From assembly GCA_913031205.1 (NCBI GenBank), contig CAJWEM010000001.1:32723-96722 (forward strand): a stretch of 64,000 bases of DNA, given 5' to 3'. Numbering within the stretch: the first letter of the stretch is position 1; the number at the start of each line of letters is the position of its first letter. The notes beneath the pieces are model-generated. The model searched no databases and was not told where the DNA came from. It worked only from the letters and a program-made list of their open reading frames with translations. Shown one piece after another: positions 12,736 through 56,417 of the stretch. This DNA is from an uncultured Gammaproteobacteria bacterium (GTDB lineage Bacteria; Pseudomonadota; Gammaproteobacteria; Poriferisulfidales; GCA-002705445). The position numbers and the translations under genes were made by a program.

Positions 12736-13086
12736 TTAGTCTTTTTTTAGAACTGCCAGAACGTCCTCAAGCTCTGAGACAAGCTGGTGTACTAGTTGAG
12801 ATGATAAAGAATTATCATTATTTGCATCCTCTCCAGATAATTTTTTTCTTGCACCCTCAATCGTATATCCCTGTTCGTAAAGAAGACTTCTAATTTGCCT
12901 TATTAATAAAACATCATGTCTTTGATAATATCTTCTATTTCCTCTCCTTTTTACTGGAGATAACATAGGAAATTCTTGCTCCCAATATCTTAGTACATGA
13001 GATTTAACATCACATAATTCGCTCACTTCTCCGATGGTGAAGTATCTTTTACTTGGTATGGATTCGTTATTCGTTACTAATTGCAT
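12736..13086 (-). CDS. MerR-family HTH transcriptional regulator (small, 116 aa)
   Basis: MerR helix-turn-helix [25 protein letters not shown]...RRGNRRYY. Sits downstream of ihfA, as in the pheST-ihfA-merR cluster of many Gammaproteobacteria. Confidence 0.75.
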
Positions 13087-22200: not shown

Positions 22201-23394
22201 TTAACCTTTCATATAGTGTTTCATTAATACCTCTGCAACTTCAGGCCTTGCAAACTCTTTTGGTAAACTCTCTCCTTTTGATAACATTTCTCTAACTTTT
22301 GTGCCAGACAAAATTACAAAATCTTCTTTTGCATGATCTGTAACATCTCTCATCATTACAACTTTATTTAATTTTTTTGAATAAGCTGTGTGGTCAGCCT
22401 TAAAAATATTTATTAATAATGCATCTTTTGGTATTTGATCAAAAATTTCTTGTGCATCAAAGGCGCCATAAAAATCGCCTACTCCAGCGTGATCTCTCCC
22501 AACAATTAAATGGCTACAGCCACAGTTTTGCCTAAAAACCGCATGAAGGAGAGCCTCTCTTGGACCAGCATATAACATATCAAAACCGTACCCAGTTATC
22601 ATCACATAATTTTTAGGGAAATAATGTTCGACCATAGTCCTGATTGCAGAATCTCTTACGTCAGCGGGAATATCTCCAGGTTTTAGTTTTCCTAAAAGCA
22701 TATGTATTAAAATTCCGTCAGCATTTACTCTTTCCCCAGCCATTCGACATAACTCTTCATGAGCGCGATGCATTGGATTTCTTGTTTGAAATGCTACTAC
22801 ATTTTTCCAACCCTTAGATTCTATAGAAGATCGAATTTGCATTGCGGTTCTAAATGTATCTTTGAAATCAATTTCAAAATAACTAAAATTTAAAACACGA
22901 ACACTTCCGCTTAATAATTTGTCGCCCTGCTCATAGAAAGTTTGAACTCCAGGATGTGAGGAGTCTTTTGTGCCATAAACTTTTTCTATTATGTTATCTA
23001 TTTCTTTTGAGTCTAATTTTTCAATTTTATCAATTTTTTGAATTGCTAAAATATTATCGCCATCTAAATTTGGATCAACTAAAGCTATTTCTTCACCCTC
23101 TTTGAAATCAACTTTTTGATTTGTAAGATTTACAACCGGTGTGGGCCAAAACAATCCGTTCTTTAGTTTCATGTCATTCGCAACTGAAACAAGATCATCT
23201 TTATTCATAAATCCATCAAGTGGAGTAAAGTAGCCAGCTCCAAGCATTACTAAATTTGCTGCCGCGGCAGAAGTAACTTTTATTTTTTTCATTTCTGAAG
23301 CTGATTTTAGAAGCGACTCTTTTTCTTCGTCTGTGTTGACTATTCTTGGCATTAGCTCTTGTGAGCCATGTGGTTTTATCATTTTCCCCTCCAA
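22201..23394 (-). CDS. sat: sulfate adenylyltransferase (ATP sulfurylase), single-subunit dissimilatory type
   Basis: 397 aa with motifs QTRNPMHRAHEEL and GRDHAGVG. Alternative start at MIKPHG. Confidence 0.9.
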   Translation of the reverse strand: MEGKMIKPHGSQELMPRIVNTDEEKESLLKSASEMKKIKVTSAAAANLVMLGAGYFTPLDGFMNKDDLVSVANDMKLKNGLFWPTPVVNLTNQKVDFKEGEEIALVDPNLDGDNILAIQKIDKIEKLDSKEIDNIIEKVYGTKDSSHPGVQTFYEQGDKLLSGSVRVLNFSYFEIDFKDTFRTAMQIRSSIESKGWKNVVAFQTRNPMHRAHEELCRMAGERVNADGILIHMLLGKLKPGDIPADVRDSAIRTMVEHYFPKNYVMITGYGFDMLYAGPREALLHAVFRQNCGCSHLIVGRDHAGVGDFYGAFDAQEIFDQIPKDALLINIFKADHTAYSKKLNKVVMMRDVTDHAKEDFVILSGTKVREMLSKGESLPKEFARPEVAEVLMKHYMKG

Positions 23395-29469: not shown

Positions 29470-29769
29470 TTAGTTGGCACAAGGTGGAGAATCTTTGACA
29501 TACTCTTCTTTTTCTTTCCACTCATCCTTGGTAAATAGATGAAGTGATAGAGCATGTACTCCATTCTCTAATTCAAATTTTAAAAGTTCATTGATTCTTC
29601 TGTGTCGCTGGACTAATTTCACGTCTTTAAATTCATCAGAGACCAAAATAACTTTGAAATGCGAATCAGTGTTAGGCCCGCTATGCATATGACTTTCATT
29701 GATAACCTCAAGATGACTTAAATCAAAATTATCACTTAAAGTATGTTCAATTTTTTTTTCTACGCTCAT
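29470..29769 (-). CDS. BolA-family protein
   Basis: 99 aa with VINESHMHSG...HFKVILVSDEF, a BolA signature. Confidence 0.8.
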   Translation of the reverse strand: MSVEKKIEHTLSDNFDLSHLEVINESHMHSGPNTDSHFKVILVSDEFKDVKLVQRHRRINELLKFELENGVHALSLHLFTKDEWKEKEEYVKDSPPCAN

Positions 29770-30572
29770 TTATCAGTTCCGAAAAAATTCATGTAATTTT
29801 TGTAAGTTATATCACATATATGATCATAAGTTTGATTTCTGTGTTTTGCTAGCGTTTTTGCAATCTCAGTTAAATAAGCAGGTTTATTTAAGTGTTTCAT
29901 CTCAGAAGTGATGTTTGACTCTTTTGACGATATGTAAGGAGATAAATATGGAGAATCAGTCTCAATGAGAAGCCTGTCATCAGGGATAATATTGATAAAA
30001 TCTCTAAGATGCTTGCCTCGCCTATCATCACATATCCATCCGGTTAACCCGATATAAACACCAAGAGATAAGTAGTCTTCTAATGAATTTTTAGTTCCAG
30101 TAAAACAATGCACTACTACTTTCTTACAATCTTTTATGTTTTCACTGATTATTTTATACATCTGATGAAAGGCATCTCTTTCATGGACAAATAACGGTAG
30201 GCCTGACTCTTTTGCCAAATCAATATGTTTAGCAAATACCTCATGCTGTATCTCTGGAGGAGAAAAGTTTCGATTAAAATCTAGGCCACACTCACCTACA
30301 GCTCTAACGTTTTCAAATTCAATTAATTTTTGTAGTTTTGCATAGCTATCCTCTTTCCATTCTTTGGCGTTATGAGGATGGTATCCAACTGTTGAAACAA
30401 AATTATATTTTTTTGCAAGTCTTTGGCATTTCTCGCTCGATGATAAATCATTGCCAACCAATACCATTTTGGTGACATTTTTTTTATTAGCTTCATTAAT
30501 AATAGCGTCTTCTTTTCCTGAAAAAACTTTATCAGTTAGATTTACGCAAATATCAACTAAATTATTATTCAT
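29766..30572 (-). CDS. tatD: TatD-family metal-dependent deoxyribonuclease/hydrolase
   Basis: 268 aa with VGECGLDF, VVHCFTG and ETDSPYL. Confidence 0.85.
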   Translation of the reverse strand: MNNNLVDICVNLTDKVFSGKEDAIINEANKKNVTKMVLVGNDLSSSEKCQRLAKKYNFVSTVGYHPHNAKEWKEDSYAKLQKLIEFENVRAVGECGLDFNRNFSPPEIQHEVFAKHIDLAKESGLPLFVHERDAFHQMYKIISENIKDCKKVVVHCFTGTKNSLEDYLSLGVYIGLTGWICDDRRGKHLRDFINIIPDDRLLIETDSPYLSPYISSKESNITSEMKHLNKPAYLTEIAKTLAKHRNQTYDHICDITYKNYMNFFGTDK

Positions 30573-31372
30573 GAAGTTATACTACAATTACAACTTTTTC
30601 TATCAATGGAATTAATTATGACTTGGCAGTTTGGACACAAATTTTTATAAGTAGGATTTAATTCTTTGTCTATAGTAATTCGATCATCAAATACGAAACA
30701 CTCTCCATCCCAATATTTTCCATCTGTCTCTATCAAATAATTAATTATGCCGCCCTTCAACTGTTTAAAAGAGCTAATCCCATTTTCAGATAAAAAACCT
30801 TGAGCTTTTTCACATCTTATGCCACCGGTGCAAAACATTACAACTTCACCATCCAGATTTTTAAACTCATCAGATTTGTTGACAAAATCCTCAAACTTAA
30901 GAATATTAAGATTCTTTGAATTTTTAAAAGTGCCTATATTTATTTCATAATTATTTCTTGTATCTAATAAATGAATTTGTTGTCCATTATTAAGCATTTT
31001 TTCTAATTCCTTTGGCTCAACATAGTTCTTTTTAACTTGCGACAAGTTCTTAGTTTTCTGCTTGATACTAATAATTTCGGGCTTAATCTTTATTTTGAGT
31101 TTTTTAAAAGGTGGTTGTTTTGAATATGTGTGTTTAAAATGGATTCCAGAAAATATTTTATGATTATTGAAAAAATTTTCTACGCTGATTATTTTATTTT
31201 CAGGGCCAGCCAAATTAATATTTACACCTTCATTAGCTATATATATAGTTCCTAGTAATCCTTTATTATTAGAGCAAATGAGTTTTACTTCTTCGAATGT
31301 TTTATTCAGATCATCTATATTGATAAATTTATATCCGGTTGTGTTTAAGCAGCTTAAGTTACTAGAATTCAT
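30569..31372 (-). CDS. rhodanese-domain protein of UPF0176/TrhO (YceA) type
   Basis: 267 aa. The N-terminal UPF0176 region is GTIYIANEGVNINLAG. The rhodanese active-site loop is CTGGIRCEKAQ. The C-terminal CPNC...CNC cysteines are present. Confidence 0.7.
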   Translation of the reverse strand: MNSSNLSCLNTTGYKFINIDDLNKTFEEVKLICSNNKGLLGTIYIANEGVNINLAGPENKIISVENFFNNHKIFSGIHFKHTYSKQPPFKKLKIKIKPEIISIKQKTKNLSQVKKNYVEPKELEKMLNNGQQIHLLDTRNNYEINIGTFKNSKNLNILKFEDFVNKSDEFKNLDGEVVMFCTGGIRCEKAQGFLSENGISSFKQLKGGIINYLIETDGKYWDGECFVFDDRITIDKELNPTYKNLCPNCQVIINSIDRKSCNCSITS

Positions 31373-31890
31373 TAAAAGCCTTCCGTTGAGGTAAATAAGC
31401 CTACTCTTAAATCTTTTGCAGTGTAAATTTCTCTTCCGTCAACAGATACAATTCCGTCACCAATGCCCATAATTAATTTTCGCGTAATCAATCTTTTTAC
31501 ATGAATTTTGTAGGTTACCTTTTTTGCTGTTGGTAATATTTGTCCAGTAAATTTTACTTCTCCAACACCAAGCGCTCTTCCTTTTCCTGGATATTGAGCC
31601 CAGCCCAAGTAGAAACCAACTAGTTGCCACATAGCATCAAGTCCTAAACAACCTGGCATAACTGGATCATTAATAAAATGACAATCAAAAAACCACAAGT
31701 CTGGTTTAATGTCTAAAGATGCGTCAATAAAACCCTTATTGTATTCGCCTCCTGAGGAGCTAATCTCTGTAATTGTGTCGAACATCAACATTCCAGTATT
31801 TGGAAGCTGTGCGTTACCTTCGCCAAACATGTTTCCTTTTGCACACTCAAGAAGCTCGTCATGCTTATAAGATTTTTTTTGTTGTATCAT
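31372..31890 (-). CDS. fabA: 3-hydroxydecanoyl-[ACP] dehydratase/isomerase
   Basis: 172 aa with the active-site region [21 protein letters not shown], diagnostic for FabA. Confidence 0.9.
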
Positions 31891-32886
31891 TTAGGTTTGC
31901 TCCGGTTGTGCGTGGAGAATTACTGGTTTAAATTCAGTTAGAACTTTAATTCTGTCAAGAGCTAATCTAAGTTCTCCTATATTATTGACTGACGTAAACC
32001 CAGTTTCTCTAATTACATCTTGATATGATGACGCGGTATCTCCAAATATTATAATTTCATCGTCTTTTATAAGACTTCTAATTTTTCTTAATTCGTTTGG
32101 CAAAAACTGCTGATTGCCATTTGGGTCTACGACCACCATTAGCAAATCACATCTTCCTTGTTCATAGCTAAACAAAACCTCGTCTGCTGAAGTTGAAGTG
32201 CCCACATAAATTGGCATCCATTCAGAGTCTTCGCAAACAAGGCATAATCTTAGCATACTTAAATTATCATTATGTGAAATTGGTGAAATTATTAGTATCT
32301 TATTATTAAGAGGTTTTTTTACTTTGCTTGAATTAATTAAAAGAAAAGATTTCATTAATTCAACCACAAATTTTTCTTGAGATTGTCTAAACGATCCAAG
32401 TTTACACTCATCTCTTACGTGTTGAATTAAAGGAGCGAATAAGTCTTCGAGTAAAAAAACTGGACCAAGCTCCTTGTAAGCGATTTCAAAAAGTTGAATT
32501 AATTTTGTAGCATCTAATTCTCTTATGGCTTCAATTGATCCATCGAAGTGTTCCATTACAGATCCAGTGCTTGGTCTATTTGTCAAAGATGTTTTTACAA
32601 TGGTAGCTGATTCATCTGACTCAATTAAATCTTCTAGGTTTTGTATATTTAATTTTGCTATATCACCAATTCTTCTGCCTCCACTTATAATTCTCTGAAG
32701 GAGCATTAATTTTTTTACATCGTTATCTGAATAAAGTCTTCTTCCATTAGAGCTTCTTGTTGGTTTTACTGCTTTATAACGACGCTCCCATGCCCTAATG
32801 ACATCTGTGCTGAGGCCAGTTCTTCTAGATACTATTTGTATAGGGTGTTTTGTTTCACTCATTATTACTCTCTCTGTTATAATCAA
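31891..32886 (-). CDS. MerR-type HTH regulator with large C-terminal sensor-like domain (331 aa)
   Basis: The N-terminus has a MerR HTH (IQIVSRRTGLSTDVIRAWERRYKAV). The ~250-aa C-terminal domain is unassigned. Its stop overlaps the fabA start, indicating an operon. Confidence 0.65.
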   Translation of the reverse strand: MIITERVIMSETKHPIQIVSRRTGLSTDVIRAWERRYKAVKPTRSSNGRRLYSDNDVKKLMLLQRIISGGRRIGDIAKLNIQNLEDLIESDESATIVKTSLTNRPSTGSVMEHFDGSIEAIRELDATKLIQLFEIAYKELGPVFLLEDLFAPLIQHVRDECKLGSFRQSQEKFVVELMKSFLLINSSKVKKPLNNKILIISPISHNDNLSMLRLCLVCEDSEWMPIYVGTSTSADEVLFSYEQGRCDLLMVVVDPNGNQQFLPNELRKIRSLIKDDEIIIFGDTASSYQDVIRETGFTSVNNIGELRLALDRIKVLTEFKPVILHAQPEQT

Positions 32887-33133
32887 CTGTGTTGAAGTTT
32901 AGAAACCTACGGCTAAAGAGTGTACATAATATAAACATTGAACAAATTTCTATTGTTATACCTTTGTTCAACTATATGTCAACCTTCTGTTATAGATAAT
33001 AGCTAAATTTTTGTCATTTGTAAAGTTATTGTCCATAACAATAGGTAAATAAAAATGTAAAAAAGTATTTTCTTTCTTTATAGGTTTGCTATACTGACTT
33101 GGTACTTTTCATTCATTCTGTAAGGAGGACGTA

Positions 33134-34285
33134 ATGAAAAAATTTTTAATAAACGCTAGATACTATCTGGCACCACTATTGATCTTTGCATCGCTTTTCG
33201 GTGTGATCGCAGGTGGACCATGGGTATGGACAGGTGTATTTTTACTTGGTGTAGGTATCATCGTTGATACTATCACTCCTGCTCAAACTATGGGTGCTGG
33301 ATTTGACGAAAATGGTGATACAAACGGAAATCCAACATTGTTAAACATAACAATGTATGCAATGTTAGCTGTATTCGTAATGATACAAATAGCAATCGCT
33401 TGGAGAATTTTTCAATACGTAAATGGTATTGAATATACAGGTGCAACAGCTTCATTCTTAGGAATGACTTATTACACAGGTATTACAGGAGCACAGTTAG
33501 TTGGTGCTGTCGTATCTTCAGGTATATTTGCAGGTATTGGAATCATCTATGGTCACGAACTTGCCCACACAAAAGGGTTCAGTTTCTTAATCGCTAGATG
33601 GATGATGGCATTAAGTGGATCAGCACATTTCTGTTACGCGCACGTATACAACCACCACTTAGAGTTAGGATGTGAAAACGATCCTGCAACAGCTCCAAGA
33701 GGAAGAAGTATATATGCACATTTACCTAAATCGCATTTTGGACAAAGTAAATTCCTATACACAATGGAAAAACAACGTCTAAAAAGATTAGGTGTGCCTT
33801 TCCTATCATGGCAAAACAGATGGATTAGAGGTTATGCAATGTCATTACCTACAATCGCACTATTCTGGTATGCAGGTGCATGGACAGGTATAGCATGTAT
33901 GGCACTAATATGGTTAATTTCTAACTTTGAGCTAGAAGCATTAAACTACTTAGAGCACTACGGCTTGATCAGAGAAACTGGTTCGCCAATCGACTACAGA
34001 CACAGCTGGGATAATTCAACATTATTCACAAGCTGGTTCTTCATCGAAATTGGTAGACAGGCTGATCATCACGACAGAGGTGAAACTCACTTCTGGGAGT
34101 TAGATGAAGTAGGAGCGCCAAACTGTGGTAATGGTTACTTTACATTATTCGCAATGGCTCTAATACCACCTTTATTCCACAAATACATGAATGAGCAATT
34201 AGCTAAGTGGGACGAAGAAGAAGCTTCAGAAGGCGAACTAAAAATCGCTGGCGAGATGAACAAGATCGCTGGTTATACTGGTTAA
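33134..34285 (+). CDS. AlkB-family integral-membrane non-heme di-iron hydroxylase (alkane-1-monooxygenase-like)
   Basis: 383 aa with multiple TM helices. Histidine boxes are HELAHTK, HVYNHH and ADHHDRG. The AlkB/XylM-specific NYLEHYGL motif is also present. Confidence 0.75.
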   Translation: MKKFLINARYYLAPLLIFASLFGVIAGGPWVWTGVFLLGVGIIVDTITPAQTMGAGFDENGDTNGNPTLLNITMYAMLAVFVMIQIAIAWRIFQYVNGIEYTGATASFLGMTYYTGITGAQLVGAVVSSGIFAGIGIIYGHELAHTKGFSFLIARWMMALSGSAHFCYAHVYNHHLELGCENDPATAPRGRSIYAHLPKSHFGQSKFLYTMEKQRLKRLGVPFLSWQNRWIRGYAMSLPTIALFWYAGAWTGIACMALIWLISNFELEALNYLEHYGLIRETGSPIDYRHSWDNSTLFTSWFFIEIGRQADHHDRGETHFWELDEVGAPNCGNGYFTLFAMALIPPLFHKYMNEQLAKWDEEEASEGELKIAGEMNKIAGYTG

Positions 34286-34387: not shown

Positions 34388-35341
34388 ATGTTTAAAAGTC
34401 TGAGTGGTTCAAGAAAATTCTTATTAGTAATTCTATTAATGGTCGCAGTATTTTCTGCAGTATCAGCATACAATAAAGAGCCTTACACCGAAGGTATCTT
34501 TTGGCAAGTAAGCAAAGACGGTGAAGTCCTGGGTCATATATACGGAACAATCCATATGAATGACGAAAAGGTAACAAGAATTGATAAAAGTGTAATGAAT
34601 ATATTTGATAACTCTGTAGGTTATTCAATAGAAGCATTTCCAAGCAGTCATTTATGGAATCCCTATCATGGTTTTGAAAACATTAAAAAAAGAATGATGT
34701 TTAGTGGCGGAAAAACATTGGCAGATGTAGCAGGTGAAAAAACTGCAAAAGATGTTTTTCAAATACTAACAAAAAATGGTGTGAGCAAAGAATATGCTAC
34801 AAAAATTAAACCATGGGCTGCAATGTTTAGTATATCTGCTAAATCAAAGCATACTGGCCCAATTGTTGACCATAAGCTTTTAGACTTAGCAAGCATTCAA
34901 GAAAAAGAGATTTATCAAATTGAATCTCCTGAGGAACTTCTTGCTGCTTTTTATGCAATGCCAATGGATTCTCAAGTAGCTTTGTTAAAATCTAAAATAA
35001 AATATTTTCCTGAAATTCAAGAAACTTTAGATAGTATGTTAGCAGCCTACCTTGACGAGGATCTTCAAGCGCTAATGGATGCCAGCACAAATTTTGTTGA
35101 CAAAAATGATCAAACCATGAAAAAGCATCTAGATATCTACCTGAAACATTCAGTTTACAATAGGAATCATGTTATGGCTCACTACATGCTTCTACCTTTT
35201 TTATATGGCCTAGATAGATATAAAGGACAAGGTGGAACATTTGTGTGTATAGGCGCCCTTCACTTATTAGGTAAAAAAGGTGTTTTGTATCTGCTTGAGA
35301 ATCAATATGGTTTTGACATAAAAAGGATAAAAATTAAATAA
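34388..35341 (+). CDS. TraB/GumN-family protein with signal peptide
   Basis: 317 aa. Hydrophobic N-terminus. The FWQVSKDGEVLGHIYGTIHM motif is typical of the GumN/TraB family. Confidence 0.6.
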   Translation: MFKSLSGSRKFLLVILLMVAVFSAVSAYNKEPYTEGIFWQVSKDGEVLGHIYGTIHMNDEKVTRIDKSVMNIFDNSVGYSIEAFPSSHLWNPYHGFENIKKRMMFSGGKTLADVAGEKTAKDVFQILTKNGVSKEYATKIKPWAAMFSISAKSKHTGPIVDHKLLDLASIQEKEIYQIESPEELLAAFYAMPMDSQVALLKSKIKYFPEIQETLDSMLAAYLDEDLQALMDASTNFVDKNDQTMKKHLDIYLKHSVYNRNHVMAHYMLLPFLYGLDRYKGQGGTFVCIGALHLLGKKGVLYLLENQYGFDIKRIKIK

Positions 35342-39736: not shown

Positions 39737-40105
39737 ATGGACTTAACTATGAGTGATATCAAGAATATACCGATTAATGCTATTGGAAGTGAAAATAGTG
39801 GTGAGAATTGCGCAGCTAATGAGCCATTTGCTCTTAGAATCCTTGACTCCAGCATGTCTCCAGAATTTGAAATTGATCACATAATCATTATAGACCCAAG
39901 TATAACCCCTAAGAATGGTGATTTTGTGGTATTTGAGACAAATAATAGCATTATAATCAGAGAGATTACGATATCTGATAAAACTGTGCTAAAGGCTTAT
40001 AGTGAGGAATTCCAGGATATAGAAATAGAAGATACAAGCTCTATAATTGGTGTTGTGACCCAAAGATCTGGGAAAAGAAGGAAATATCATAAAAGATATC
40101 ACTAA
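39737..40105 (+). CDS. stand-alone S24 (LexA/UmuD-like) peptidase-domain protein without DNA-binding domain
   Basis: 122 aa. A LexA C-terminal-domain-like stretch FALRILDSSMSPEF (Ser nucleophile context) and a beta-rich core GDFVVFETNNSIIIREI are present. There is no N-terminal HTH. The catalytic Lys position appears substituted. Confidence 0.5.
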   Translation: MDLTMSDIKNIPINAIGSENSGENCAANEPFALRILDSSMSPEFEIDHIIIIDPSITPKNGDFVVFETNNSIIIREITISDKTVLKAYSEEFQDIEIEDTSSIIGVVTQRSGKRRKYHKRYH

Positions 40106-46758: not shown

Positions 46759-47071
46759 AATTTGGATCTTTAGGATTAAGAAAAATGAAATTGAACTGAT
46801 TTTTTTCTAATTCTACATAATCAACTGTCATTCCATTACATATTTCTAGCGATGCGTTTGACATAATAATTTCGATATCATCAATATTTAGTGTCTTATC
46901 ATTACTAGTAATATTATCATCAAAACCCAAAGCGTAGTGAAAATTATTTCCACCTCTTTTCATGACTGCTATTCTAAGCTTAAAACCTTTATTTTCCTCT
47001 TTTGCAATCTCTTTTTTAAATATTGAAGCTGCTGATTCTGTAATTTTAATCATTTTTGCTCTCTTTAACAT
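46739..47071 (-). CDS. dsrR: DsrR, IscA/HesB-like protein lacking the Fe-S ligating cysteines
   Basis: 110 aa with a HesB fold signature (ESAASIFKK...GFKLRIAV..GG..FHYALGFD). The three conserved IscA cysteines are absent. Sits directly after dsrN, as in the Allochromatium vinosum dsr operon. Confidence 0.75.
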   Translation of the reverse strand: MLKRAKMIKITESAASIFKKEIAKEENKGFKLRIAVMKRGGNNFHYALGFDDNITSNDKTLNIDDIEIIMSNASLEICNGMTVDYVELEKNQFNFIFLNPKDPNYVEPKE

Positions 47072-48422
47072 AGTTAATAAAATATTTTATCCACGGCATT
47101 TTGCTTGTGTGTCTTAAGTGAGAAAAATTTGCTAAAAGCTTTTTATATATAAAACCATCTGCATCACCATTAATTCCATATCCTCTTTTTATTTTATAGG
47201 CAAACTGTATTTTTTCTTTATTACTAAAAGTTAAATCAGCGTGATGAAATTCATGTGCGTTTACTTGAAGACCCTTTTTCAGGCCCCATGGATGCTTTGC
47301 AGAGGTTTCAATTTTTACGTATCCTCTACCTATTGGCTTTTCGGACATCGTTGTTCTTCCAGGCAATATACCAACCATTTTAAAGCTTTTATTTTTAAAC
47401 TTTATACTTCTTGTTAAATACATAAGGCCGCCGCACTCTGCGTAAACTGGAAGACCAGAGTTTATAAAATTTTTGACATCTTGAATTAGAGTTTTATTTT
47501 TTTCTATTTTTTCAGCATAAATTTCAGGAAAACCTCCTCCAATGAAAAGTCCATCGACATTGGGTAGATTTTTATCTTTAAAAGAATTTATAAATACCAA
47601 ATCTGCGCCATATTTTTTAAATTTCTCTAAGTCATCTTTATAATAAAATCCAAAAGACTGATCGTAAAAAATACCAATTTTTATTTTACTGTCTGATAAA
47701 TTATTAATTAAATTTTTTTTCTTAACAGTTTTTTTTGTTTTATTTTTAATATTTAAGCCGATTTTTTTAAAACTTTTTATATCAATAGATTCAGATATAA
47801 TTTTTGATACGGTGTTGATTTTCTTTTCTGCATATTTTTTCTCATTTGCTGGAACTAATCCTAAATGTCTTTCTGATATAAGTAATTCTTTACTCTTTCG
47901 AATTGAACCAAGAACTTTTATATCCGTATAATTATTTACAGCATTTACCAGTTTATCTTCATGGCGATCGGTTTTTACTTTATTTAAAACGACTCCCTGA
48001 ATATTACATTTTTTATTAAAATTTAAATATCCTTGAAGAAGTGGTGCAATTCCACGTGTGATACCTTCCGTGTCTACAATTAATAATACGGGTATCTCTA
48101 GTAAAACTGATAAAGCTGAATTATCGTCTTGACCACTTTCATTTACACCATCGAATAAGCCTTTGTTGCCCTCAATTATGTTGAAATCTAATTTTTTTAA
48201 ATTAAAGAAATTCTTTATTTCTGAATTTGTTTGAGTATTAAAATCAAGATTATAACAATTAGATTTAGAGGCAAGTGATAACCAGCTCATATCAATATAG
48301 TCAGGCCCTTTTTTAAAAGACTGCAGATTATAATTTAGGTTAGACAACATTCTTGAAAATCCAATTGAGAAAATTGTTTTTCCAGAAGATTTGTGGGCGG
48401 CAGATATGAAAAAACTATTCAA
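47046..48422 (-). CDS. dsrN: DsrN, cobyrinic acid a,c-diamide synthase-like amidotransferase (siroheme amidation)
   Basis: 458 aa with a CobB/CbiA-type N-terminal ATPase region and a C-terminal GATase-like domain. Positioned between dsrP and dsrR. Confidence 0.8.
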   Translation of the reverse strand: MNSFFISAAHKSSGKTIFSIGFSRMLSNLNYNLQSFKKGPDYIDMSWLSLASKSNCYNLDFNTQTNSEIKNFFNLKKLDFNIIEGNKGLFDGVNESGQDDNSALSVLLEIPVLLIVDTEGITRGIAPLLQGYLNFNKKCNIQGVVLNKVKTDRHEDKLVNAVNNYTDIKVLGSIRKSKELLISERHLGLVPANEKKYAEKKINTVSKIISESIDIKSFKKIGLNIKNKTKKTVKKKNLINNLSDSKIKIGIFYDQSFGFYYKDDLEKFKKYGADLVFINSFKDKNLPNVDGLFIGGGFPEIYAEKIEKNKTLIQDVKNFINSGLPVYAECGGLMYLTRSIKFKNKSFKMVGILPGRTTMSEKPIGRGYVKIETSAKHPWGLKKGLQVNAHEFHHADLTFSNKEKIQFAYKIKRGYGINGDADGFIYKKLLANFSHLRHTSKMPWIKYFINYVKESKND

Positions 48423-48428
48423 AATAAA

Positions 48429-49793
48429 TTATTCCTCTGCTGGCTTACCTTCGTCTGCAGATTTATTTTTTTCCTCTGTTTCTAATTCTTCAGTTGTTTT
48501 TTGATCAGGGGGAACGCTCGATTTTTCATCAACAACTTCTTCTTGAGATTCCTTTTCTTCCTCAAGCTGTTCTTCTGTAACCGGTTCAGGTACATTTGCC
48601 ATAGCAGTTGCGGCATTATCAAGGCTTCTAGGCGTAAAGTCTAAAACCATGATCGCAAATAAATAAATCGCTGCAGCAATACCAACCCCGCCCAAGCCCA
48701 ACATGAATTCATAAATACTTGGAACATAAGTTGCTTCCACTCCGTCAAAAAAGGAACTTCTTTCAATATAGCCTGGAAATAAATCAAGCGGAAACGCCTG
48801 TCCAGAAATTATAATTACATAAAGCATGGAAAACCCACCAAACAAAACCAGAATAGAGGCATAAAGCAAACCTGAAGCAGATTTTGATAATTTCTTATTA
48901 TATAAAATTAATAATGGGAAAAGCGTGCCTATTATCATTTGGCACCCCCAAAATAAAAAAGTATAAATATTTCCAGAAAATAATAAAAAGAATTCGTAAC
49001 CATGATTCTTTGTTACATACAGATTAGTTAGATGTGAAAGTATTGTGATGTAGAAAACTGTGAATATAAAATATATTAATAATTTTCTAAATCTTTTTAT
49101 TATTTCAGATCCTAAAGGAATCCCAAGTCCTCTATCCATCCAAAATAATATTTTATAAAAAAATGCAGTCCCAACAAGCAGCGATAAAGCTATAAATAAT
49201 GGAGCTAAAAGAGCGCCATTGTATGCCTCTTTTGCTACCAAGAAGGCAAAAATTGAACCTGTACCAGTAGTTAGTGTGACTCGCCAGGCAAAAGCGAAGG
49301 TTCCAACTTTACCAACAAACTTATTGTATCTTGCCTCAAACATCATCCATAAATACAAAGCTACAACGGCCATAAAGCCACTATACAAAAATACGTTCCA
49401 TGCAAAAATTGATTTAAAATTAAAAGTGGTCATTGCCACAATGAGACGATCTGGCCTGCCAAGATCAAGTACTAAAACTATTAATCCTCCGGTTAACAAA
49501 CTTATCGCCAAAAGTGCAGAAAGCCTCCCAAGCGGTTTATATATTTTTATATTAAAAACAGAAGAAATTGAGGCAATATTTAAAACACCTGATGCCGCGA
49601 TAATTAAAAAAATTGCAAATACATGTGGTAAGCCCCAAACAATTTGGTTGTTCATTCCCGTTAGCCAGTGTCCTTCATGTTCAAGTGTCACAAATGAGTA
49701 AAAACCTAATCCAATAAATGACATAGCAACAAGACCATAAATAAATATAGCTTTTGAAAACTCGACTATTATGTAGTCTGTTTTATCTCTCAC
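48429..49793 (-). CDS. dsrP: DsrP, NrfD/PsrC-like integral membrane quinone-interacting subunit
   Basis: 454 aa with ~10 TM helices. Follows dsrO. Confidence 0.85.
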   Translation of the reverse strand: MRDKTDYIIVEFSKAIFIYGLVAMSFIGLGFYSFVTLEHEGHWLTGMNNQIVWGLPHVFAIFLIIAASGVLNIASISSVFNIKIYKPLGRLSALLAISLLTGGLIVLVLDLGRPDRLIVAMTTFNFKSIFAWNVFLYSGFMAVVALYLWMMFEARYNKFVGKVGTFAFAWRVTLTTGTGSIFAFLVAKEAYNGALLAPLFIALSLLVGTAFFYKILFWMDRGLGIPLGSEIIKRFRKLLIYFIFTVFYITILSHLTNLYVTKNHGYEFFLLFSGNIYTFLFWGCQMIIGTLFPLLILYNKKLSKSASGLLYASILVLFGGFSMLYVIIISGQAFPLDLFPGYIERSSFFDGVEATYVPSIYEFMLGLGGVGIAAAIYLFAIMVLDFTPRSLDNAATAMANVPEPVTEEQLEEEKESQEEVVDEKSSVPPDQKTTEELETEEKNKSADEGKPAEE

Positions 49794-49795
49794 TT

Positions 49796-50539
49796 TTATA
49801 TTCCTCTGTAACGAACAGCCGTATTTAAACCCAAGTCGCTTCTTACTTCAGTTGTTTTGTATTTATTTAGTTTTTTTGAAATTTCACTTTCAGGGTCGTT
49901 CAGATCACCAAATAGAATGGCTTGGTGACCATCTTTATTGCATGCTTCTGCACAAGCAGTGGTATTCTCTCCTTTATCTACTTTATGCACGCACAAATTG
50001 CAGCTTTCAACACAACCTTTTCCTCTTGGCGTATGTGGAACTTGATTTTCAAGATTTTCATGAATGAAGGATCTTGCCTTATATGGGCACGACATCATGC
50101 AATATCTACAGCCAATACATGTATGTTTATTTACTAGAACAATGCCATCCGCGCGAATGAATGACGCTCCAGTTGGGCATACATCAACACATGGAGGATT
50201 TTCGCAATGCTGACACATCATTGGTATTGTTAAAGATTCTCCTGAATCTTCATGTGTTAAATTTAACTTTCTAATATATTGTGTATCTGTTGTAGGCCTT
50301 CCAAAATCTTCTATCCCATGTTCCTCATTACAAGCAGTAACACATGCATTACAATCTTCAGAACATTGGTTCGCATCAATTAATAAGCCCCATCGATTTT
50401 TTGACGATGCTGGTTCGTTCAATGGTCTTGCATGCGCAAGTTCTTGAAAAAAAACTCCTGGTGCTAAAGATGACATACCTAACATGCCGCTGGACTTGAG
50501 AAAATTTCTTCTATCTAATTTTATTTTATATTTTTTCAT
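49796..50539 (-). CDS. dsrO: DsrO, periplasmic ferredoxin-like 4x[4Fe-4S] protein with Tat-like signal
   Basis: 247 aa. The N-terminus RRNFLKSSGMLGMSSLA is Tat-like. Multiple CxxCxxCxxxCP motifs. Confidence 0.88.
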   Translation of the reverse strand: MKKYKIKLDRRNFLKSSGMLGMSSLAPGVFFQELAHARPLNEPASSKNRWGLLIDANQCSEDCNACVTACNEEHGIEDFGRPTTDTQYIRKLNLTHEDSGESLTIPMMCQHCENPPCVDVCPTGASFIRADGIVLVNKHTCIGCRYCMMSCPYKARSFIHENLENQVPHTPRGKGCVESCNLCVHKVDKGENTTACAEACNKDGHQAILFGDLNDPESEISKKLNKYKTTEVRSDLGLNTAVRYRGI

Positions 50540-50947
50540 TTATTTAGAAGAATCCTCAATATTTTTTTTTGCTACTTTTTTATAAGGTTTAGACGCATGA
50601 CAATCAAAACATTCAACTTTTACAGCTGCTGCAATGTGACAGGCTGAACAAAAATGTTCCTCGGTTTTTACACTTGGATATGATCCATCTGCAAGTGGTT
50701 TAATATGACAATTAATACAATTATTTAAACTATACTTTTTTGTTCGAATACCATTGACTACAGTTTCATGGCTTTGATGATTTATAAATATGTGGTGTTG
50801 AGCGCGCATAACATCCGTTGGTTCAACACATTTATCACCAGAGGAAGCATCTATATTATGTTTTATATTTTCGTGAGTAATTGATGAACCACTAAAGAGA
50901 ACTAAAAAAAGGGCTAGCGAAATCTTTATAGATAAAATCTTATACAT
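50540..50947 (-). CDS. dsrJ: DsrJ, periplasmic triheme cytochrome c
   Basis: 135 aa with a signal peptide and three CxxCH motifs (CINCH, CSACH, CFDCH). Confidence 0.88.
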   Translation of the reverse strand: MYKILSIKISLALFLVLFSGSSITHENIKHNIDASSGDKCVEPTDVMRAQHHIFINHQSHETVVNGIRTKKYSLNNCINCHIKPLADGSYPSVKTEEHFCSACHIAAAVKVECFDCHASKPYKKVAKKNIEDSSK

Positions 50948-51002
50948 ACTGAATCTCTCCTCATAATTCAGATAATGACTACATGTTTAATAATTACCTA
51001 AA

Positions 51003-52970
51003 TTAATGATCACCAAGAGCCATGTCGATGTAGCCTGTTGGACAAACATCAGAACATATATGACATCCAATACATTTTTTATAATCAGTGTCTACATACC
51101 TTCCAGTGGTACTTTTATCCTTCTTCACTCTAAATACCGCGTCTTGTGGACAATAAATTACACAATTGTCACATTCAAAACACATACCACAACTCATACA
51201 TCTTCCGGCTTCTTCAATTGCTTGCTCTTCTGTGTAGCATTTTAATCTTTCATCAAAATTACCAAGAATATTTTCTGCTTCTGGTCCTACATCTGATCTA
51301 ATATTTCTTGGTGTATATGGGAAATGCCCAAGAAACATCTTATCCGTATTAATTATTTCTTGTGCCGACCTATCTTCATAATTATGAACTGAGAATTCTT
51401 TACTATCACTTCCCCAGTGTGATCCAGATTCGTACTCAGCTGGTTTTAGTCCTGACTCTTTAAGTTTCTCAAGCAAATTGAAATGATGAACATCAACTTT
51501 AGGACGTTTTTTCAATTCTTTTAAGTCAACTTGAGCGAGATACTGATCTATAGTCTCAGCAACAATTGAACCTTGACCAATTGCTGTTGTAAGAAGATGA
51601 GGTCTAATAATATCACCAGCAACAAAGTGTCCAGGCTTTCCTGGTACAGAATAATTACGATCAGCGTCTATAAGATTCTTTCCGTTATTAAATTCTTCGA
51701 GGCCATCTAAAACACCACCTTGCCCTATAGCAGCAACAATTAAGTCGGCTTCTATTTCAAACTCTGTACCTTCAATTTTTTCCGGTCTGCCTTCTTTCAT
51801 TGTGCATTTTGCCATTTTAAGTGCATACGCATTTCCTGTTTTTTCATCAACTAGAACTTCAAGCGGCATAACCTCATCTAAGATTTGAACTCCTTCACGC
51901 ATTGCATCGTGAACTTCATGTTCAGCAGCAGTCATTTCGGACTTCTTAAATAATGTTGTTAATGTTACGTCATTATGTATTCTTTCAGACGATAGTTTTT
52001 CATCTTGTGCAGAGTTTTCTTTTAGAATATTTTCTGGTTTTATATCATTTGGTAACTCCTCTTTAAGAGTTCCCATTCTTCTTGACGAACAAACGACGTC
52101 AATCGAGGTGTCTCCACCGCCTACACAAACTACTTTCTTTGCAGTTACATGAAGTCTTTTTTGTGCAAATGCTTCAAGATATTTAATTGCAGAGATACAG
52201 TTTGGCGCATCACTATTTGGAACTGGTAATGCTCTACCTGTCCAGCATCCTATAGCCCATAAGACTGCATCGTAATCTTTTTCTAAACTTTCTGCTGATA
52301 CGTCTTTTCCAACACTTGTATTCAATTTAACTTCGATATTTCCCATTGCAAGAATTCGATCAATTTCAGGATCTAAATAAGCATCAGGTGTTCTATAACT
52401 AGGAATACCGTATCTCATCATTCCACCCAGCTTGTCATGAGAATCAAAAATTACACTCGCATGCCCAAGCTTTCTTAATTGGTACGCAGCTGACATTCCC
52501 GCAGGGCCACCTCCGATAATTGCTACAGTTTTTCCACTCATTTCTTCAGTACATGAGAAAGTGAATCCTTCAGCAATAGCTTGATCACCTATATATTGTT
52601 CAACAGCGTTAATACCAACAAAATCTTCAACATTATTTCTATTACAGCCATCTTGACATGGTGCAGGACAAACTCTGCCCATCATTGATGGAAATGGATT
52701 TGCAGTAGTTGACCTTCTAAAAGCATACTCTTGCATTTTTATATCAGCTGGTGGTTTCTCGACTCCACGCACAATATCAAGCCAACCACGAATATCTTCT
52801 CCAGATGGGCAACTTCCTTGGCATGGTGGAGTTCTATGAACGTATGTAGGGCATTTATGAGATTTGTCTTGTTGAAAAATTTTATTACCTAAATTTTCAT
52901 AGGTGTGCACACCATCCTGGAACTTCCTGAAGGTAAGCTTTTTTTCAACTACATCTTTATTTGTTGCCAT
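51003..52970 (-). CDS. dsrL: DsrL, NAD(P)H:acceptor oxidoreductase (glutamate-synthase small-subunit-like flavoprotein with C-terminal ferredoxin domain)
   Basis: Has FAD/NAD binding (IIGGGPAGMSAA; VVCVGGGDTSID), N-terminal Fe-S Cys clusters and a C-terminal 2x[4Fe-4S] domain (CMSCGMCFECDNCVIYCP...CIGCHICSDVCP). The track ORF begins at GTG 53003, overlapping the dsrK stop. I place the start at the ATG (MATNKDVV) preceded by GGAGAG at 52975-52980; both starts are plausible. Confidence 0.85.
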   Translation of the reverse strand: MATNKDVVEKKLTFRKFQDGVHTYENLGNKIFQQDKSHKCPTYVHRTPPCQGSCPSGEDIRGWLDIVRGVEKPPADIKMQEYAFRRSTTANPFPSMMGRVCPAPCQDGCNRNNVEDFVGINAVEQYIGDQAIAEGFTFSCTEEMSGKTVAIIGGGPAGMSAAYQLRKLGHASVIFDSHDKLGGMMRYGIPSYRTPDAYLDPEIDRILAMGNIEVKLNTSVGKDVSAESLEKDYDAVLWAIGCWTGRALPVPNSDAPNCISAIKYLEAFAQKRLHVTAKKVVCVGGGDTSIDVVCSSRRMGTLKEELPNDIKPENILKENSAQDEKLSSERIHNDVTLTTLFKKSEMTAAEHEVHDAMREGVQILDEVMPLEVLVDEKTGNAYALKMAKCTMKEGRPEKIEGTEFEIEADLIVAAIGQGGVLDGLEEFNNGKNLIDADRNYSVPGKPGHFVAGDIIRPHLLTTAIGQGSIVAETIDQYLAQVDLKELKKRPKVDVHHFNLLEKLKESGLKPAEYESGSHWGSDSKEFSVHNYEDRSAQEIINTDKMFLGHFPYTPRNIRSDVGPEAENILGNFDERLKCYTEEQAIEEAGRCMSCGMCFECDNCVIYCPQDAVFRVKKDKSTTGRYVDTDYKKCIGCHICSDVCPTGYIDMALGDH

Positions 52971-53002
52971 AATTCTCTCCTTGTAACATAAATTATAAAG
53001 CA

Positions 53003-54550
53003 CTAAGCTGCTTCATCTATATCCTCTTGTGGGTGGTTTTCCTCGTCATTTTCGTCATTCTGACCAGTCAGAATAATTGCGTTACTTACTAACTGATGCA
53101 CACTTACAATTTGATCCATAGTGAAGTCATAGTAAGGGAAAACCTTTGAAAATTGGCTCTTACAAATTGCGCAAATCGCCGCCATATGCGTCACACCTTT
53201 TTCTTCAACAACTCTTCTTAAAGCTTCCATTCTTGGGAGGGCTCCCTTTACTCTCAATTCCATCAAATCGTCTGTTAAAAGGCCACCGCCACCGCCACAA
53301 CAAAATGTCCCTTCTTTAATAGTATCCGAAGACATATCATAAAAATTATTACAGGTTGCTTTTATAATTTCTCTAGGAATTAAAAACTGTCCACCAGCGC
53401 TATCGCCCATTCTTGATGCCCGGGCAACATTGCAAGAGTCGTGGTAAGTTAATACCATATCGTCGTTTAATGACTTATCAAATCTGAGTTTATTTTCTTG
53501 TATTAAATTATATGTTACTTCGCAAATATGCTGTGGCACAGGATATTTAGGATCTAGAAAATCCCACGGGCCCGCAAGTGTATTTAAGAAGCTATATGCA
53601 ACTCTCCATGCATGCCCGCATTCGCCGAATACAATTCTTTTCACACCGAGTTCTAAAGCAGCTTCTCTAATTCTTACTGCAAGTTTTCTCATATTATCGT
53701 AACTACCAATGAACATACCGAAGTTTGCTGCCTCACTTGCATGAGAACTAACTGTCCAAGATATTCCAGCTTCATGAAAAACTTTTCCGTATCCTATTAA
53801 ACCGTCAACATGTGGTTCAGCAAAAAAGTCTGCGGATGGTGTAACTAGAAGAACTTCTGCGCCTTTAACATCGAGAGGATATTTTACAGCTACACCAGTT
53901 TCGTCTTCTACATCTTCCTCTAAACCCTCAAGCGTATCCTCTAATGCAGGTCCTGGAAGTCCCAAGTTATTTCCTATTTTATGAACTTTACTAATAATTT
54001 CATTACAATATTTTTGACCAACACCGATTGTATCCATTACTTCTCTTGCAGCCATTGAAATTTCAGCTGTATCAATACCATACGGACAATAGACAGAACA
54101 TCTTCTGCATTGTGAGCATTGATGAAAATAGGAATACCAATCATCTAAAACTTCTTTTGTAAGATCTGTTGCGCCGACTAATTTTGGAAAATATTTTCCA
54201 GCAAAAGTAAAGTATCTTCTGTAAACCTTCCTATACAAATCTTGTCTTGCTACAGGCATATTTTTTGGATCAGTGGTTCCAACATAATAATGACACTTAT
54301 CTGTACAAGCTCCACACTTGACGCAGGAATCTAAATAAACTTGCAAAGATCTATATTTACCCTGTAGGTCAGCCATTTTTTTTATTGCTACATTTTCCCA
54401 GTCATCAACGAGTTCTCCAGGAAACCCAAGAGGCTCTTGATGAGGCTCTTTTGCAATAAATGGCTTACTATGAGACATTACCCCTTTCTTTAATTTAGGG
54501 ATAATTGGATATTCTCTAAGTTGCGGTGTATCAAATTTACTATCTGCCAT
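53003..54550 (-). CDS. dsrK: DsrK, HdrD-like catalytic Fe-S subunit with CCG domains
   Basis: 515 aa with CVKCGACTDKCHY and CSQCRRCSVYCPYG ferredoxin motifs and a C-terminal CCG domain (FCCGGGGG). Confidence 0.88.
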   Translation of the reverse strand: MADSKFDTPQLREYPIIPKLKKGVMSHSKPFIAKEPHQEPLGFPGELVDDWENVAIKKMADLQGKYRSLQVYLDSCVKCGACTDKCHYYVGTTDPKNMPVARQDLYRKVYRRYFTFAGKYFPKLVGATDLTKEVLDDWYSYFHQCSQCRRCSVYCPYGIDTAEISMAAREVMDTIGVGQKYCNEIISKVHKIGNNLGLPGPALEDTLEGLEEDVEDETGVAVKYPLDVKGAEVLLVTPSADFFAEPHVDGLIGYGKVFHEAGISWTVSSHASEAANFGMFIGSYDNMRKLAVRIREAALELGVKRIVFGECGHAWRVAYSFLNTLAGPWDFLDPKYPVPQHICEVTYNLIQENKLRFDKSLNDDMVLTYHDSCNVARASRMGDSAGGQFLIPREIIKATCNNFYDMSSDTIKEGTFCCGGGGGLLTDDLMELRVKGALPRMEALRRVVEEKGVTHMAAICAICKSQFSKVFPYYDFTMDQIVSVHQLVSNAIILTGQNDENDEENHPQEDIDEAA

Positions 54551-54562
54551 ATCTATTATCTA

Positions 54563-55303
54563 TTAATTTGTTTTCTCTAGTTCTTGCGCCCATTTTGCAA
54601 GATGTCTTTTCTCACGAGCATTATCAACCTGATTTCTCGATGGGCTAAAAAATAACCCAGGTGCATGTAACAATTTACTATATGGGAAAATTATCATTAA
54701 AAAAGCAACCATTACCAAATGAGAAATCAACACAAGGTCAGCTGGAATATTTTGTATATTAAATGTTAACAATCCTACAAAAAAAGATTTGACACTTATA
54801 ACATCAGCCCCAAGATAAAAACTCATTGCCATGCCTGTGGTTGTTATGCATAAAAGCAAAACTAAAATTAAGTGATCTGACGGAGCTGAAATATATCGAA
54901 CTCTATCTACAACTATTCTCCTCGCAAGTAATCCAGCTAATCCAACTAACATCAATATTGAGCCATATTTTCCAAAAGGTTGAATAATTACGACCCAAAA
55001 CCAAACGGGATCAATAAAATATCTCAGGTGTCTTAACATGTCTAAAAATAAACCAAAGTGAAAAAGCCAGCCAAACAACCAGGTGATCTTACTTGACTTA
55101 AAAAGGCTTTCAAAAAAAACAACCTCTTTAGACATTCTAAAAACAACACCCGCCTGCGTCGTAGGAGCAGGCATCGTTGGAATTTTAAGGGGCGCGGGCG
55201 TATTTTTGTATTGTAGAATTTTTACTACAAGACCGTACGCCAAAATAAAAAAAGCTATATAAAATAATGCAGCTATTGAAAAACTTAACATTGATATCTG
55301 CAT
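54563..55303 (-). CDS. dsrM: DsrM, NarI-like dihaem b membrane subunit
   Basis: 246 aa with 5-6 TM helices and conserved His in the helices (HFGLFLDMLRHLRYF; HLVMVAF). Confidence 0.85.
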   Translation of the reverse strand: MQISMLSFSIAALFYIAFFILAYGLVVKILQYKNTPAPLKIPTMPAPTTQAGVVFRMSKEVVFFESLFKSSKITWLFGWLFHFGLFLDMLRHLRYFIDPVWFWVVIIQPFGKYGSILMLVGLAGLLARRIVVDRVRYISAPSDHLILVLLLCITTTGMAMSFYLGADVISVKSFFVGLLTFNIQNIPADLVLISHLVMVAFLMIIFPYSKLLHAPGLFFSPSRNQVDNAREKRHLAKWAQELEKTN

Positions 55304-55319
55304 ATCCTACACTTCTACT

Positions 55320-55652: not shown

Positions 55653-55678
55653 ATTAACCTCCGGTTATTAAAAAAAAC

Positions 55679-56413: not shown

Positions 56414-56417
56414 TTAT

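Follow-up and report, generated by a model that had tools for sequence, protein, structure and literature searches.

What does a MerR-type regulator encoded next to fabA, and divergently from a membrane di-iron enzyme, respond to, and which of these neighbours does it control? The question is raised by a 64,000-nucleotide (64-kb) stretch of DNA from an uncultured Gammaproteobacteria bacterium (contig CAJWEM010000001.1, positions 32,723 to 96,722), which was analysed as a whole and is called the window below. A sequence-only reading of it had proposed that one regulator, with a C-terminal domain left unassigned, senses a redox, light or cofactor signal and jointly controls anaerobic (FabA) and O2-dependent (di-iron) routes of lipid modification. 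Our preferred reading, to which we give a probability of about 0.6, is that the regulator would be a repressor derived from CarH but independent of B12, acting on its own operon, fabA included, and probably also on the divergent oxygenase gene; binding, repression and control of the oxygenase are what we infer by analogy with known CarH-like systems. The genes concerned are these:

31891..32862, minus strand: regulator gene, CarH/LitR family, 323 amino acids (aa) from ATG 32862, with TTG 32886 as a possible start
31372..31890, minus strand: fabA, for 3-hydroxydecanoyl-acyl carrier protein dehydratase/isomerase, recognized by domain and NCBIfam models
29470..31372, minus strand: rest of the probable operon (trhO 30569-31372, tatD 29766-30572, bolA 29470-29769)
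33134..34285, plus strand: gene for an AlkB-family integral-membrane di-iron oxygenase, 383 aa, divergent from the regulator

The regulator, fabA and oxygenase genes all lie where the sequence-only reading had placed them, and the details of their arrangement can be refined. Read from TTG, the regulator open reading frame (ORF; 31891..32886, minus strand) does give the 331 aa reported earlier, but since the homologues (more than 100) start with MSETKHPIQ, equivalent to the ATG at 32862, the protein of 323 aa is the likelier one. The stop codon of the regulator gene had been thought to overlap the fabA start; the two genes abut, the TAA directly preceding the fabA ATG with a gap of 0 nt and no overlap. 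Thus, unless a promoter lies inside the regulator gene, fabA in the window would be read from the regulated promoter. The packing stays tight further on (overlaps of 1 nt for fabA/trhO, and of 4 nt for both trhO/tatD and tatD/bolA), and regulator-fabA-trhO-tatD-bolA therefore probably forms one five-gene transcription unit, so that the earlier idea of co-transcription holds while that of a two-gene unit does not. By sequence the fabA product is a true FabA: it scores 290 bits with NCBIfam TIGR01749 (cutoff 238) and 290 with NF003509 (cutoff 124), and carries the catalytic His/Asp segment CHF...GLDAMWQL. As had been noted, fabA has no fabB beside it, and the window ORFs that were scanned include neither a fabB nor genes for a rubredoxin, a LOV protein or a photolyase. 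The divergent gene, with its FA_desaturase/AlkB match, begins 247 bp (TTG start) or 271 bp (ATG start) from the regulator gene, in line with the spacing of about 250 bp given before.

The sensor domain of the regulator has the architecture of a cobalamin-binding domain. Pfam assigns MerR_1 to the protein (3e-13) and gives a B12-binding_2 match below threshold, and the NCBIfam CarH model covers the head alone. In an AlphaFold (AF2) model built with 51 aligned homologues (mean predicted local distance difference test, pLDDT, 85.8), a winged-helix head is followed by a four-helix bundle and a five-stranded Rossmann-like module, whose strands and helices (residues 188-311) are confidently modelled. 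When this model was compared with the PDB by Foldseek, the top 50 matches were all CarH or CarH-like B12-domain structures, the best full-length match being Thermus thermophilus CarH (TtCarH; 5c8e, E 1.7e-13); for the sensor domain alone the template-modelling (TM) score was 0.78 and the root-mean-square deviation ~3.4 Å. The 250-aa domain left unassigned before would therefore have the CarH/LitR cobalamin-binding-domain fold.

The family placement is also apparent in the head. The RxWERRY recognition helix is the DNA-reading motif of CarH and CarA (PMC9304148), and residues 22-29 of the regulator read IRAWERRY. The motif is invariant across 83 regulators derived from the loci compared here. 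A profile search of 1.84 billion cluster representatives returned 1,356 clusters at E ≤ 1e-30, and in the best 146, which were examined, five of its six residues are invariant (R23, W25, E26 and R28 among those named), the fourth being R in 91 and K in 46. On sequence and modelled fold together, the regulator belongs to the CarH/LitR branch of the MerR family.

The residues by which CarH holds its cofactor are another matter. In CarH a Wx9EH motif in the bundle caps the adenosyl group, and a D/ExHx2G motif in the Rossmann module supplies the axial His (PMC9304148). A profile alignment to TtCarH places C153, an invariant Cys in the subfamily defined below, at the position of the capping Trp131, and K154 and K164 at those of His132 and His142 (Lys or Arg in relatives); Glu141 is kept as E163. 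The axial His177 is Asp in the window protein and variable in relatives, and Gly180 is Ser (window H-N-D-N-L-S aligned with TtCarH E-R-H177-E-I-G). No conserved His occupies the axial-ligand position among the 83 locus-derived regulators. The regulator thus lacks both the Wx9EH and the D/ExHx2G/P motifs that mark class I CarH proteins. Within the 146 family representatives, the axial-His motif (D/ExHx2G/P) is present in 130 and the full W/H/H/G signature in 114, while 12 make up a coherent subfamily with RPxTxxVME before the bundle, [DE]EC[RK]xG and no axial His; RPSTGSVME (regulator residues 96-104) and Cys153 are invariant in it. Since 114 of these relatives are canonical and the 12 without the B12 signature hold together, the regulator, as far as sequence comparison goes, comes from a branch that arose from true B12-binding CarH proteins and then lost the signature. 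Four further clusters (P0264, P0272, P0288 and P0364) have Cys in place of the capping Trp yet keep the EH and the axial His and Gly, and could stand midway between the B12-less subfamily and classical CarH. The earlier suggestion to look for a domain such as B12-binding at the C-terminus was therefore half right, the CarH cobalamin-domain fold being complete and its B12-binding residues replaced; with those residues gone, sensing of B12 or of light in the manner of CarH is unlikely.

The DNA between the two divergent genes carries what looks like an operator of the same family. Its elements, from the oxygenase side to the regulator side, are:

33085..33095, plus strand: predicted extended -10 of the AlkB-like gene (TTTGCTATACT), 55 bp from the palindrome centre
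33030..33040, minus strand: TGT-N5-ACA palindrome (TGTTATGGACA), centre 33035, the operator element nearest the oxygenase promoter
33019..33024, minus strand: predicted -35 (TTTACA) of the regulator-fabA promoter, also an ACA site like those of the direct repeats, 11 bp from the ACA arm of the palindrome
32996..33001, minus strand: predicted -10 (TATTAT) of the regulator-fabA promoter, its position conserved relative to direct repeat (DR) 1
32954..32990, minus strand: operator array of four tandem CarH-type direct repeats, DR1-DR4
32863..32953, minus strand: 5' leader of the regulator, with a TGTACA element (32921-32926) and an inverted DR copy (32938-32946)

The predicted regulator promoter, TTTACA-17-TATTAT, is a 10/12 match. 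Right after its -10 box the ACA triplets of DR1-DR4 follow at offsets 0, +11, +23 and +34 (spacing 11/12/11), and from the predicted promoter position the four repeats would therefore span roughly +1 to +37. For comparison we aligned 39 unique intergenic regions from related loci whose regulators are 39-100% identical: the ACA array is perfect in 32 of them and has one or two mismatches in the remaining seven, no perfect array arose in 200 rounds of a dinucleotide-shuffle control, and the self-similarity of the regions peaks at lags 11, 23 and 34. The pattern ACA-N8-ACA-N9-ACA-N8-ACA was observed once in the window, with 0.01 occurrences expected, and in 43 of the 85 loci L001-L085, once each and always just upstream of the regulator. 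The pooled repeat, A-n-n-T-T-n-G-A-C-A-a-A (T at -3/-4, then GACA), agrees at the sequence level with the published CarH repeat nnnnTnnACAn, of which three (Thermus) or four (Bacillus) copies in tandem overlap the promoter (PMC9304148). The palindrome is present in all 39 unique regions of lineages A and B, the two synteny groups into which loci with regulators at least 39% identical fall and whose other flanks differ; its centre lies 44-45 bp upstream of DR1 (45 in the window).

The layout of these elements is not that of a classical MerR-type activator, with a dyad in a 19-20 bp spacer: the spacer is 17 bp, and the putative operator elements sit upstream of the -35 and downstream of the -10. 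Nor is it the inverted repeat that the sequence-only reading had expected in 32887-33133, where a strong, conserved operator of the family type does lie, in the form of a direct-repeat array; the one candidate for a simple inverted-repeat operator, a 9-bp pair (TTGAACAAA/TTTGTTCAA), proved to pair a direct repeat with an inverted copy that is lineage-specific. From the predicted start the regulator leader runs to ~127 nt in the clade of the window as against ~65 nt in other lineages, and its TGTACA-containing element is conserved. No second operator site was detected in the 64-kb window, by exact pattern or by clusters of position weight matrix (PWM) matches. GACA clusters with 11-bp spacing also precede the regulator genes of some remoter relatives (34-38% identity), and autoregulation by repeats of this kind thus appears, from the sequences, to reach beyond the subfamily.

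On the oxygenase side, the palindrome lies at about -67 from the predicted transcript start, and, wherever the extended -10 was found in lineages A and B, 55-57 bp separate it from the palindrome centre, with a single exception. The lengths of the leaders on either side of this control core range over 37-146 nt and 58-128 nt. Because the spacing is rigid while the leaders vary, we place the oxygenase promoter in the same control region, and the arrangement of the sequence suggests that the regulator-DNA complex probably also sets oxygenase expression.

The gene order is conserved along with the control region. The divergent pairing of the oxygenase with regulator-fabA is kept wherever regulator identity is 39% or more and the contig is long enough; an arrangement so retained in sequence is not due to chance. 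Homologues of the oxygenase 71-72% identical occur in four sampled lineages (L087/88, L089, L090 and L092) with a divergent CarH-like MerR protein and no fabA; for one regulator of such a fabA-less pair an identity of 36% was measured, and in L089 and L090 the palindrome is intact and the repeat array reduced. Since the pair persists without fabA, the oxygenase is the constant partner of the regulator, and fabA a frequent but dispensable one. No gene other than the oxygenase constantly adjoins the regulator across the compared loci, as a partner or anti-repressor might. The oxygenase is also the best conserved of the three proteins: an identity of 71-80% compares with 62-70% for FabA and 36-45% for the regulator, and it is 71-98% identical across lineages whose regulators go down to 36-45%.

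Several observations on related loci may be recorded here. In lineage B the regulator and fabA are separated by ~85-180 nt (e.g. L032 4952-5077, L036 1344-1477), and a small palindromic hairpin (CTGCATGGATGCAG) stands just upstream of fabA in about half of the longer gaps; the sequence of these gaps suggests a separate fabA promoter plus a further RNA or protein site. Regulators 34-38% identical from another marine gammaproteobacterial clade (L051-L061, L065, L067, L069-L071, L075, L077 and L082) were seen by eye in the context (lexA)-dinB-regulator, convergent with valS/holC/pepA, and have no oxygenase or fabA gene within 4 kb. A Y-family polymerase gene is also near the oxygenase in L005, L087/88 and L090. 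Contig ctg78592_7x_l carries two AlkB-like copies 41 kb apart, in L086 (5001-6143) and L092 (4001-5143), which match at 379 of 380 positions and look like the result of a recent duplication or gene conversion; the L092 copy is divergent from a CarH-like regulator, and downstream of the L086 copy come genes for a ferredoxin, a GST-like protein and a XylA-like reductase. About a dozen contigs of short-read metagenome-assembled genomes (MAGs) end at or within the 5' part of the oxygenase gene, as expected of a repeat.

What the oxygenase does bears on any account of the locus as a lipid module. It matches Pfam FA_desaturase (4e-26) and, by phmmer, the solved AlkB structures over ~265 aligned residues (8sbb, E 3e-29; 8f6t, E 1e-26), with the motifs HELAH, HVYNHH, NYLEH and RQADHH in register with AlkB; no NCBIfam AlkB model matched it. 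The di-iron ligands of FtAlkB are nine His and one Glu (H137, H141, H167, H171, H172, E271, H272, H311, H314, H315; PMC10113152), of which the window protein keeps the Glu and eight of the nine His: the Fe2 ligand His311 is replaced by Gln309, invariant in 28 homologues. The AF2 model, built on a shallow alignment, is of low confidence (pLDDT 62), and so, although its sole significant Foldseek matches in the PDB are 8f6t and 8sbb (TM ~0.62), the assignment to the AlkB fold rests on the sequence match; sequence and model both point to the six-helix AlkB-like membrane fold. Relatives are annotated as fatty-acid desaturase or alkane monooxygenase, JGI using "alkane 1-monooxygenase". The only solved or characterized relatives are alkane hydroxylases, and the earlier description of the enzyme as a modifier of membrane lipids is to that extent not sustained. 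A rubredoxin motif (CxxCG...CPxC) is absent from every frame of the window and has one match across L001-L085, in L063, a locus without an oxygenase gene. At the two loci that lack the regulator the oxygenase gene is followed by those for a small ferredoxin, a GST-like protein and a XylA-like Fer2/FAD/NAD reductase, and these ferredoxin and reductase neighbours recall, by analogy, the ferredoxin-reductase-ferredoxin-AlkB fusion class reviewed in PMC8918992.

We suggest, by analogy with CarH, CarA and class II LitR, that the regulator would bind as an oligomer, probably a dimer of dimers, and occupy the four tandem 11-bp repeats over its own transcript start together with the palindrome at about -46. 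This occupancy would repress regulator-fabA-trhO-tatD-bolA, and the same protein-DNA complex would probably also set the expression of the divergent oxygenase. Release of the repressor would then depend on a signal other than B12 bound in the classical His-on way. Three candidates for it may be put forward, each tentatively and on an equal footing: the invariant Cys found where CarH has its cofactor-capping Trp might be oxidized or otherwise modified; a lipid or other hydrophobic molecule might occupy the pocket that the cofactor has vacated; and an unlinked anti-repressor protein might act, as in the CarA/CarS or LitR/LOV pairs. A more far-reaching version, which we think rather unlikely, is that the regulator represents a new sensory class derived from CarH, in which the Cys senses directly, as a redox or oxidant thiol or as the ligand to a thiolate-ligated cobalamin or haem, and couples exposure to O2 or oxidants to the oxygenase and FabA. 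The logic of anaerobic versus O2-dependent lipid routes we offer as a hypothesis.

Several of our own observations weigh against this repressor model. The repeats cover the regulator promoter and no operator element overlaps that of the oxygenase, so that joint control is something we infer; a PWM scan found no repeat cluster near the oxygenase promoter, the nearest operator element lies ~25 bp upstream of the -35 expected there, and a repressor bound at such a position need not act. The fixed spacing could reflect the tight packing of two promoters, and it is not universal (43 bp in L046, 35 bp in L089). As for fabA, its absence from four sampled lineages means that its link may be secondary, and in lineage B it often has an apparent promoter of its own, with a conserved extended -10-like sequence (CATTTGCTACACT) in the regulator-fabA gap. 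Two sampled oxygenase copies have no adjacent regulator, and no repeat array is visible upstream of the regulator-less copy in L086. Finally, the pair-bearing lineages share traces of an ancestral neighbourhood (nudix, bolA, tatD, rhodanese, traB, dinB), and their contexts are therefore not fully independent evidence.

These points feed two alternative accounts of the locus. The regulator may be dedicated to the oxygenase, perhaps sensing its hydrophobic substrate or product, with fabA, trhO, tatD and bolA as passengers in a streamlined genome and no logic of lipid homeostasis behind the arrangement. The constancy of the pair, kept without fabA in L087/88, L089, L090 and L092, speaks for it, as do the palindrome on the oxygenase side, which is the best-kept element and is intact in L089 and L090, the downstream genes, which are functionally unrelated and vary between lineages, the apparent promoter of lineage B fabA, and the usual induction of alkane hydroxylases, the AlkB relatives, by their substrate. 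We regard this account as possible, if on the unlikely side: fabA lies directly behind the regulator in both lineages A and B despite their differing other flanks, in the window it can be reached from the intergenic side only through the repeat array, and the strongest operator elements are on the regulator/fabA promoter and not on that of the oxygenase. More sceptically, the locus might be no functional module at all, an inherited synteny among related gammaproteobacteria in which the regulator controls only itself here and has its real targets elsewhere in the genome. The recurrence of nudix, bolA, tatD, rhodanese, traB and dinB around the pair in several lineages would fit this, regulators 31-38% identical do have other neighbours (e.g. 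dinB/valS, or a 169-aa protein that is fasciclin-like by eye), and our operator scan covered 64 kb of the genome; but the neighbour genes change while the pair stays, and the geometry of the control region, oxygenase promoter included, holds within 1-2 bp while the leaders vary three-fold, which makes the idea quite improbable to us.

A different objection concerns the signal and not the targets. If the regulator were a working B12-based light or cobalamin sensor of the CarH/class I LitR type, fabA and the oxygenase would respond to light or B12. The full-length CarH fold and the weak Pfam B12-binding_2 match would suit such a sensor, PF02310 and PF02607 are recorded for some homologues of 40-45% identity, a homologue 87% identical bears the name 'light-induced transcriptional regulator' in one source, the closest outgroup clusters have the canonical signature (the 114 of 146 with W/H/H/G), and the source cell came from marine water. 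Set against this are the replacements at Trp131, His132, His142, His177 and Gly180, an axial His that is neither conserved in the 83 locus-derived regulators nor present in any of the 12 subfamily clusters, an Rfam scan of the window that found one tRNA only and no cobalamin or other riboswitch, and the absence of cobalamin genes among the scanned window ORFs; we consider a B12-based sensor highly improbable.

The B12-independent repressor that we favour can be placed among known systems, each of which it resembles in part. The class I LitR and CarH proteins are adenosylcobalamin photoreceptor repressors (T. thermophilus, Myxococcus xanthus, Bacillus megaterium) with the same RxWERRY MerR head and bundle-plus-Rossmann fold, with three or four tandem 11-bp TnnACA repeats that overlap the promoter, and with a regulator gene adjoining its targets; in contrast to them, the window regulator is without the Wx9EH motif and the His of D/ExHxxG, its repeats are spaced 11-12-11 where those of CarH are strictly 11, and it neighbours fabA and an AlkB-like oxygenase gene where CarH neighbours carotenoid genes. 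CarA, the B12-independent CarH paralogue of M. xanthus, likewise has a palindrome upstream of the -35 and a second site over the promoter, works without B12 and is released by the anti-repressor CarS (PMC9304148). Unlike the window regulator, which has neither, CarA keeps the B12-binding motif and the EH of Wx9EH; taxon and linked genes also differ, and no carS-like gene was identified near the regulator. Class II LitR proteins (PplR1 and PmlR2 of Pseudomonas) are again repressors unable to bind B12, whose footprint of ~80 bp has two parts, as the putative operator here does: a site at the -35 and another that falls between start site and start codon; their targets include a lipid-modifying enzyme, the furan fatty-acid synthase UfaM. 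They keep only the four-helix bundle and have an adjacent short LOV partner as anti-repressor (PMC9758184), whereas the window regulator retains the modelled Rossmann module; the class II site is TGTACA-N12-TGTACA, and no LOV/PAS protein was found among the scanned window ORFs. Judged by its model, the regulator thus does not belong to class II LitR as described in PMC9758184. Its divergent partner shares HELxH, HxxxHH, NYxEH, xxDHH and the Glu ligand with AlkB alkane 1-monooxygenase (FtAlkB 8F6T/8SBB; Pseudomonas putida GPo1), but differs in the invariant Gln at the place of His311, in having no rubredoxin nearby and in a near-identical paralogue that stands beside a ferredoxin and a XylA-like reductase. 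Literature on MerR with fabA, on LitR class IV/Vibrio and on Thioglobus/SUP05 with alkB yielded nothing on a fabA-regulator-oxygenase module.

A precedent for the joint control proposed here is DesT of Pseudomonas aeruginosa, a single repressor to which an O2-dependent membrane desaturase and the O2-independent FabA/FabB route are both subject. This protein, a sensor of acyl-CoA saturation, belongs to the TetR family and shows no sequence relationship to the CarH-like regulator; it differs further in that the oxygenase here is AlkB-like and no known acyl desaturase, and that dual control of fabA and the oxygenase is at this stage a proposal.

The remainder of the window bears on the identity of the host. 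Two further features are these:

34388..35341, plus strand: TraB/PrgY/GumN-family gene downstream of the oxygenase gene, whose membership of the module is uncertain
47046-59208, 61204-61545 and 22201-23394: reverse-type dsr cluster and associated genes (dsrAB, EFH, C, MK..OP, dsrN; a second DsrC-like gene; ATP sulfurylase)

A TraB/PrgY/GumN-family gene again adjoins the oxygenase gene in L092 and is near it in L087/L088, and the family is absent from lineage B. A marine single-cell genome with the label "uncultured Thiothrix sp." AH-287-I11 encodes the identical regulator protein, and close relatives are marine MAGs, some with contigs of ~1.1 Mb. Otherwise the window holds housekeeping genes, a complete reverse-dsr cluster and sat; given this cluster and the close marine relatives, the host is a small-genome, sulfur-oxidizing gammaproteobacterium, and the NCBI label 'Thiothrix' of the matching single-cell genome looks doubtful. 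A CobB/CobQ-like ORF (47046-48422), considered as a B12 gene, lies inside the dsr cluster and is dsrN. Beside the DsrC-like gene, 60500-61180 (plus strand) encodes a 226-aa protein matching Pfam PF09559 'Cas6 Crispr' (8e-55); Tandem Repeats Finder, run on the window, detected nothing like a CRISPR array, and the scanned ORFs include no further cas gene. A perfect 15-bp tandem repeat (CTTTTTTGGTTGTTG; 507-570, 4.3 copies) lies in the 3' end of the gene for ribosomal protein S2 (496-1437, minus strand) and would, by its sequence, give the protein a tail of repeated pentapeptides. The window has a second MerR-family gene, for a small protein (116 aa; 12736-13086, minus strand), which follows pheS-pheT and a HU/IHF-like gene, and a 122-aa S24 peptidase (39737-40105, plus strand), with no other Pfam domain at E <= 1e-5, is read as a LexA/UmuD-like C-terminal domain.

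CarH/LitR proteins serve as the model of light sensing through B12 and have been taken up as optogenetic parts, while signal sensing by their B12-less relatives (CarA, LitR classes II-V) is still largely open. The subfamily described here is a definable offshoot in which the fold is kept and every B12 signature lost, with a sharp operator and a small, conserved set of candidate targets, properties that make the question of what replaces B12 directly testable. The locus also draws attention to a very highly conserved AlkB-like oxygenase that is annotated in two ways, and suggests how free-living relatives of the SUP05/Arctic96BD-19 sulfur oxidizers may regulate fabA, through a mechanism of which the literature searched gave no instance. 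Were the Cys to prove the sensor, this class would constitute a MerR-family analogue of DesT-type dual control in abundant marine sulfur oxidizers.

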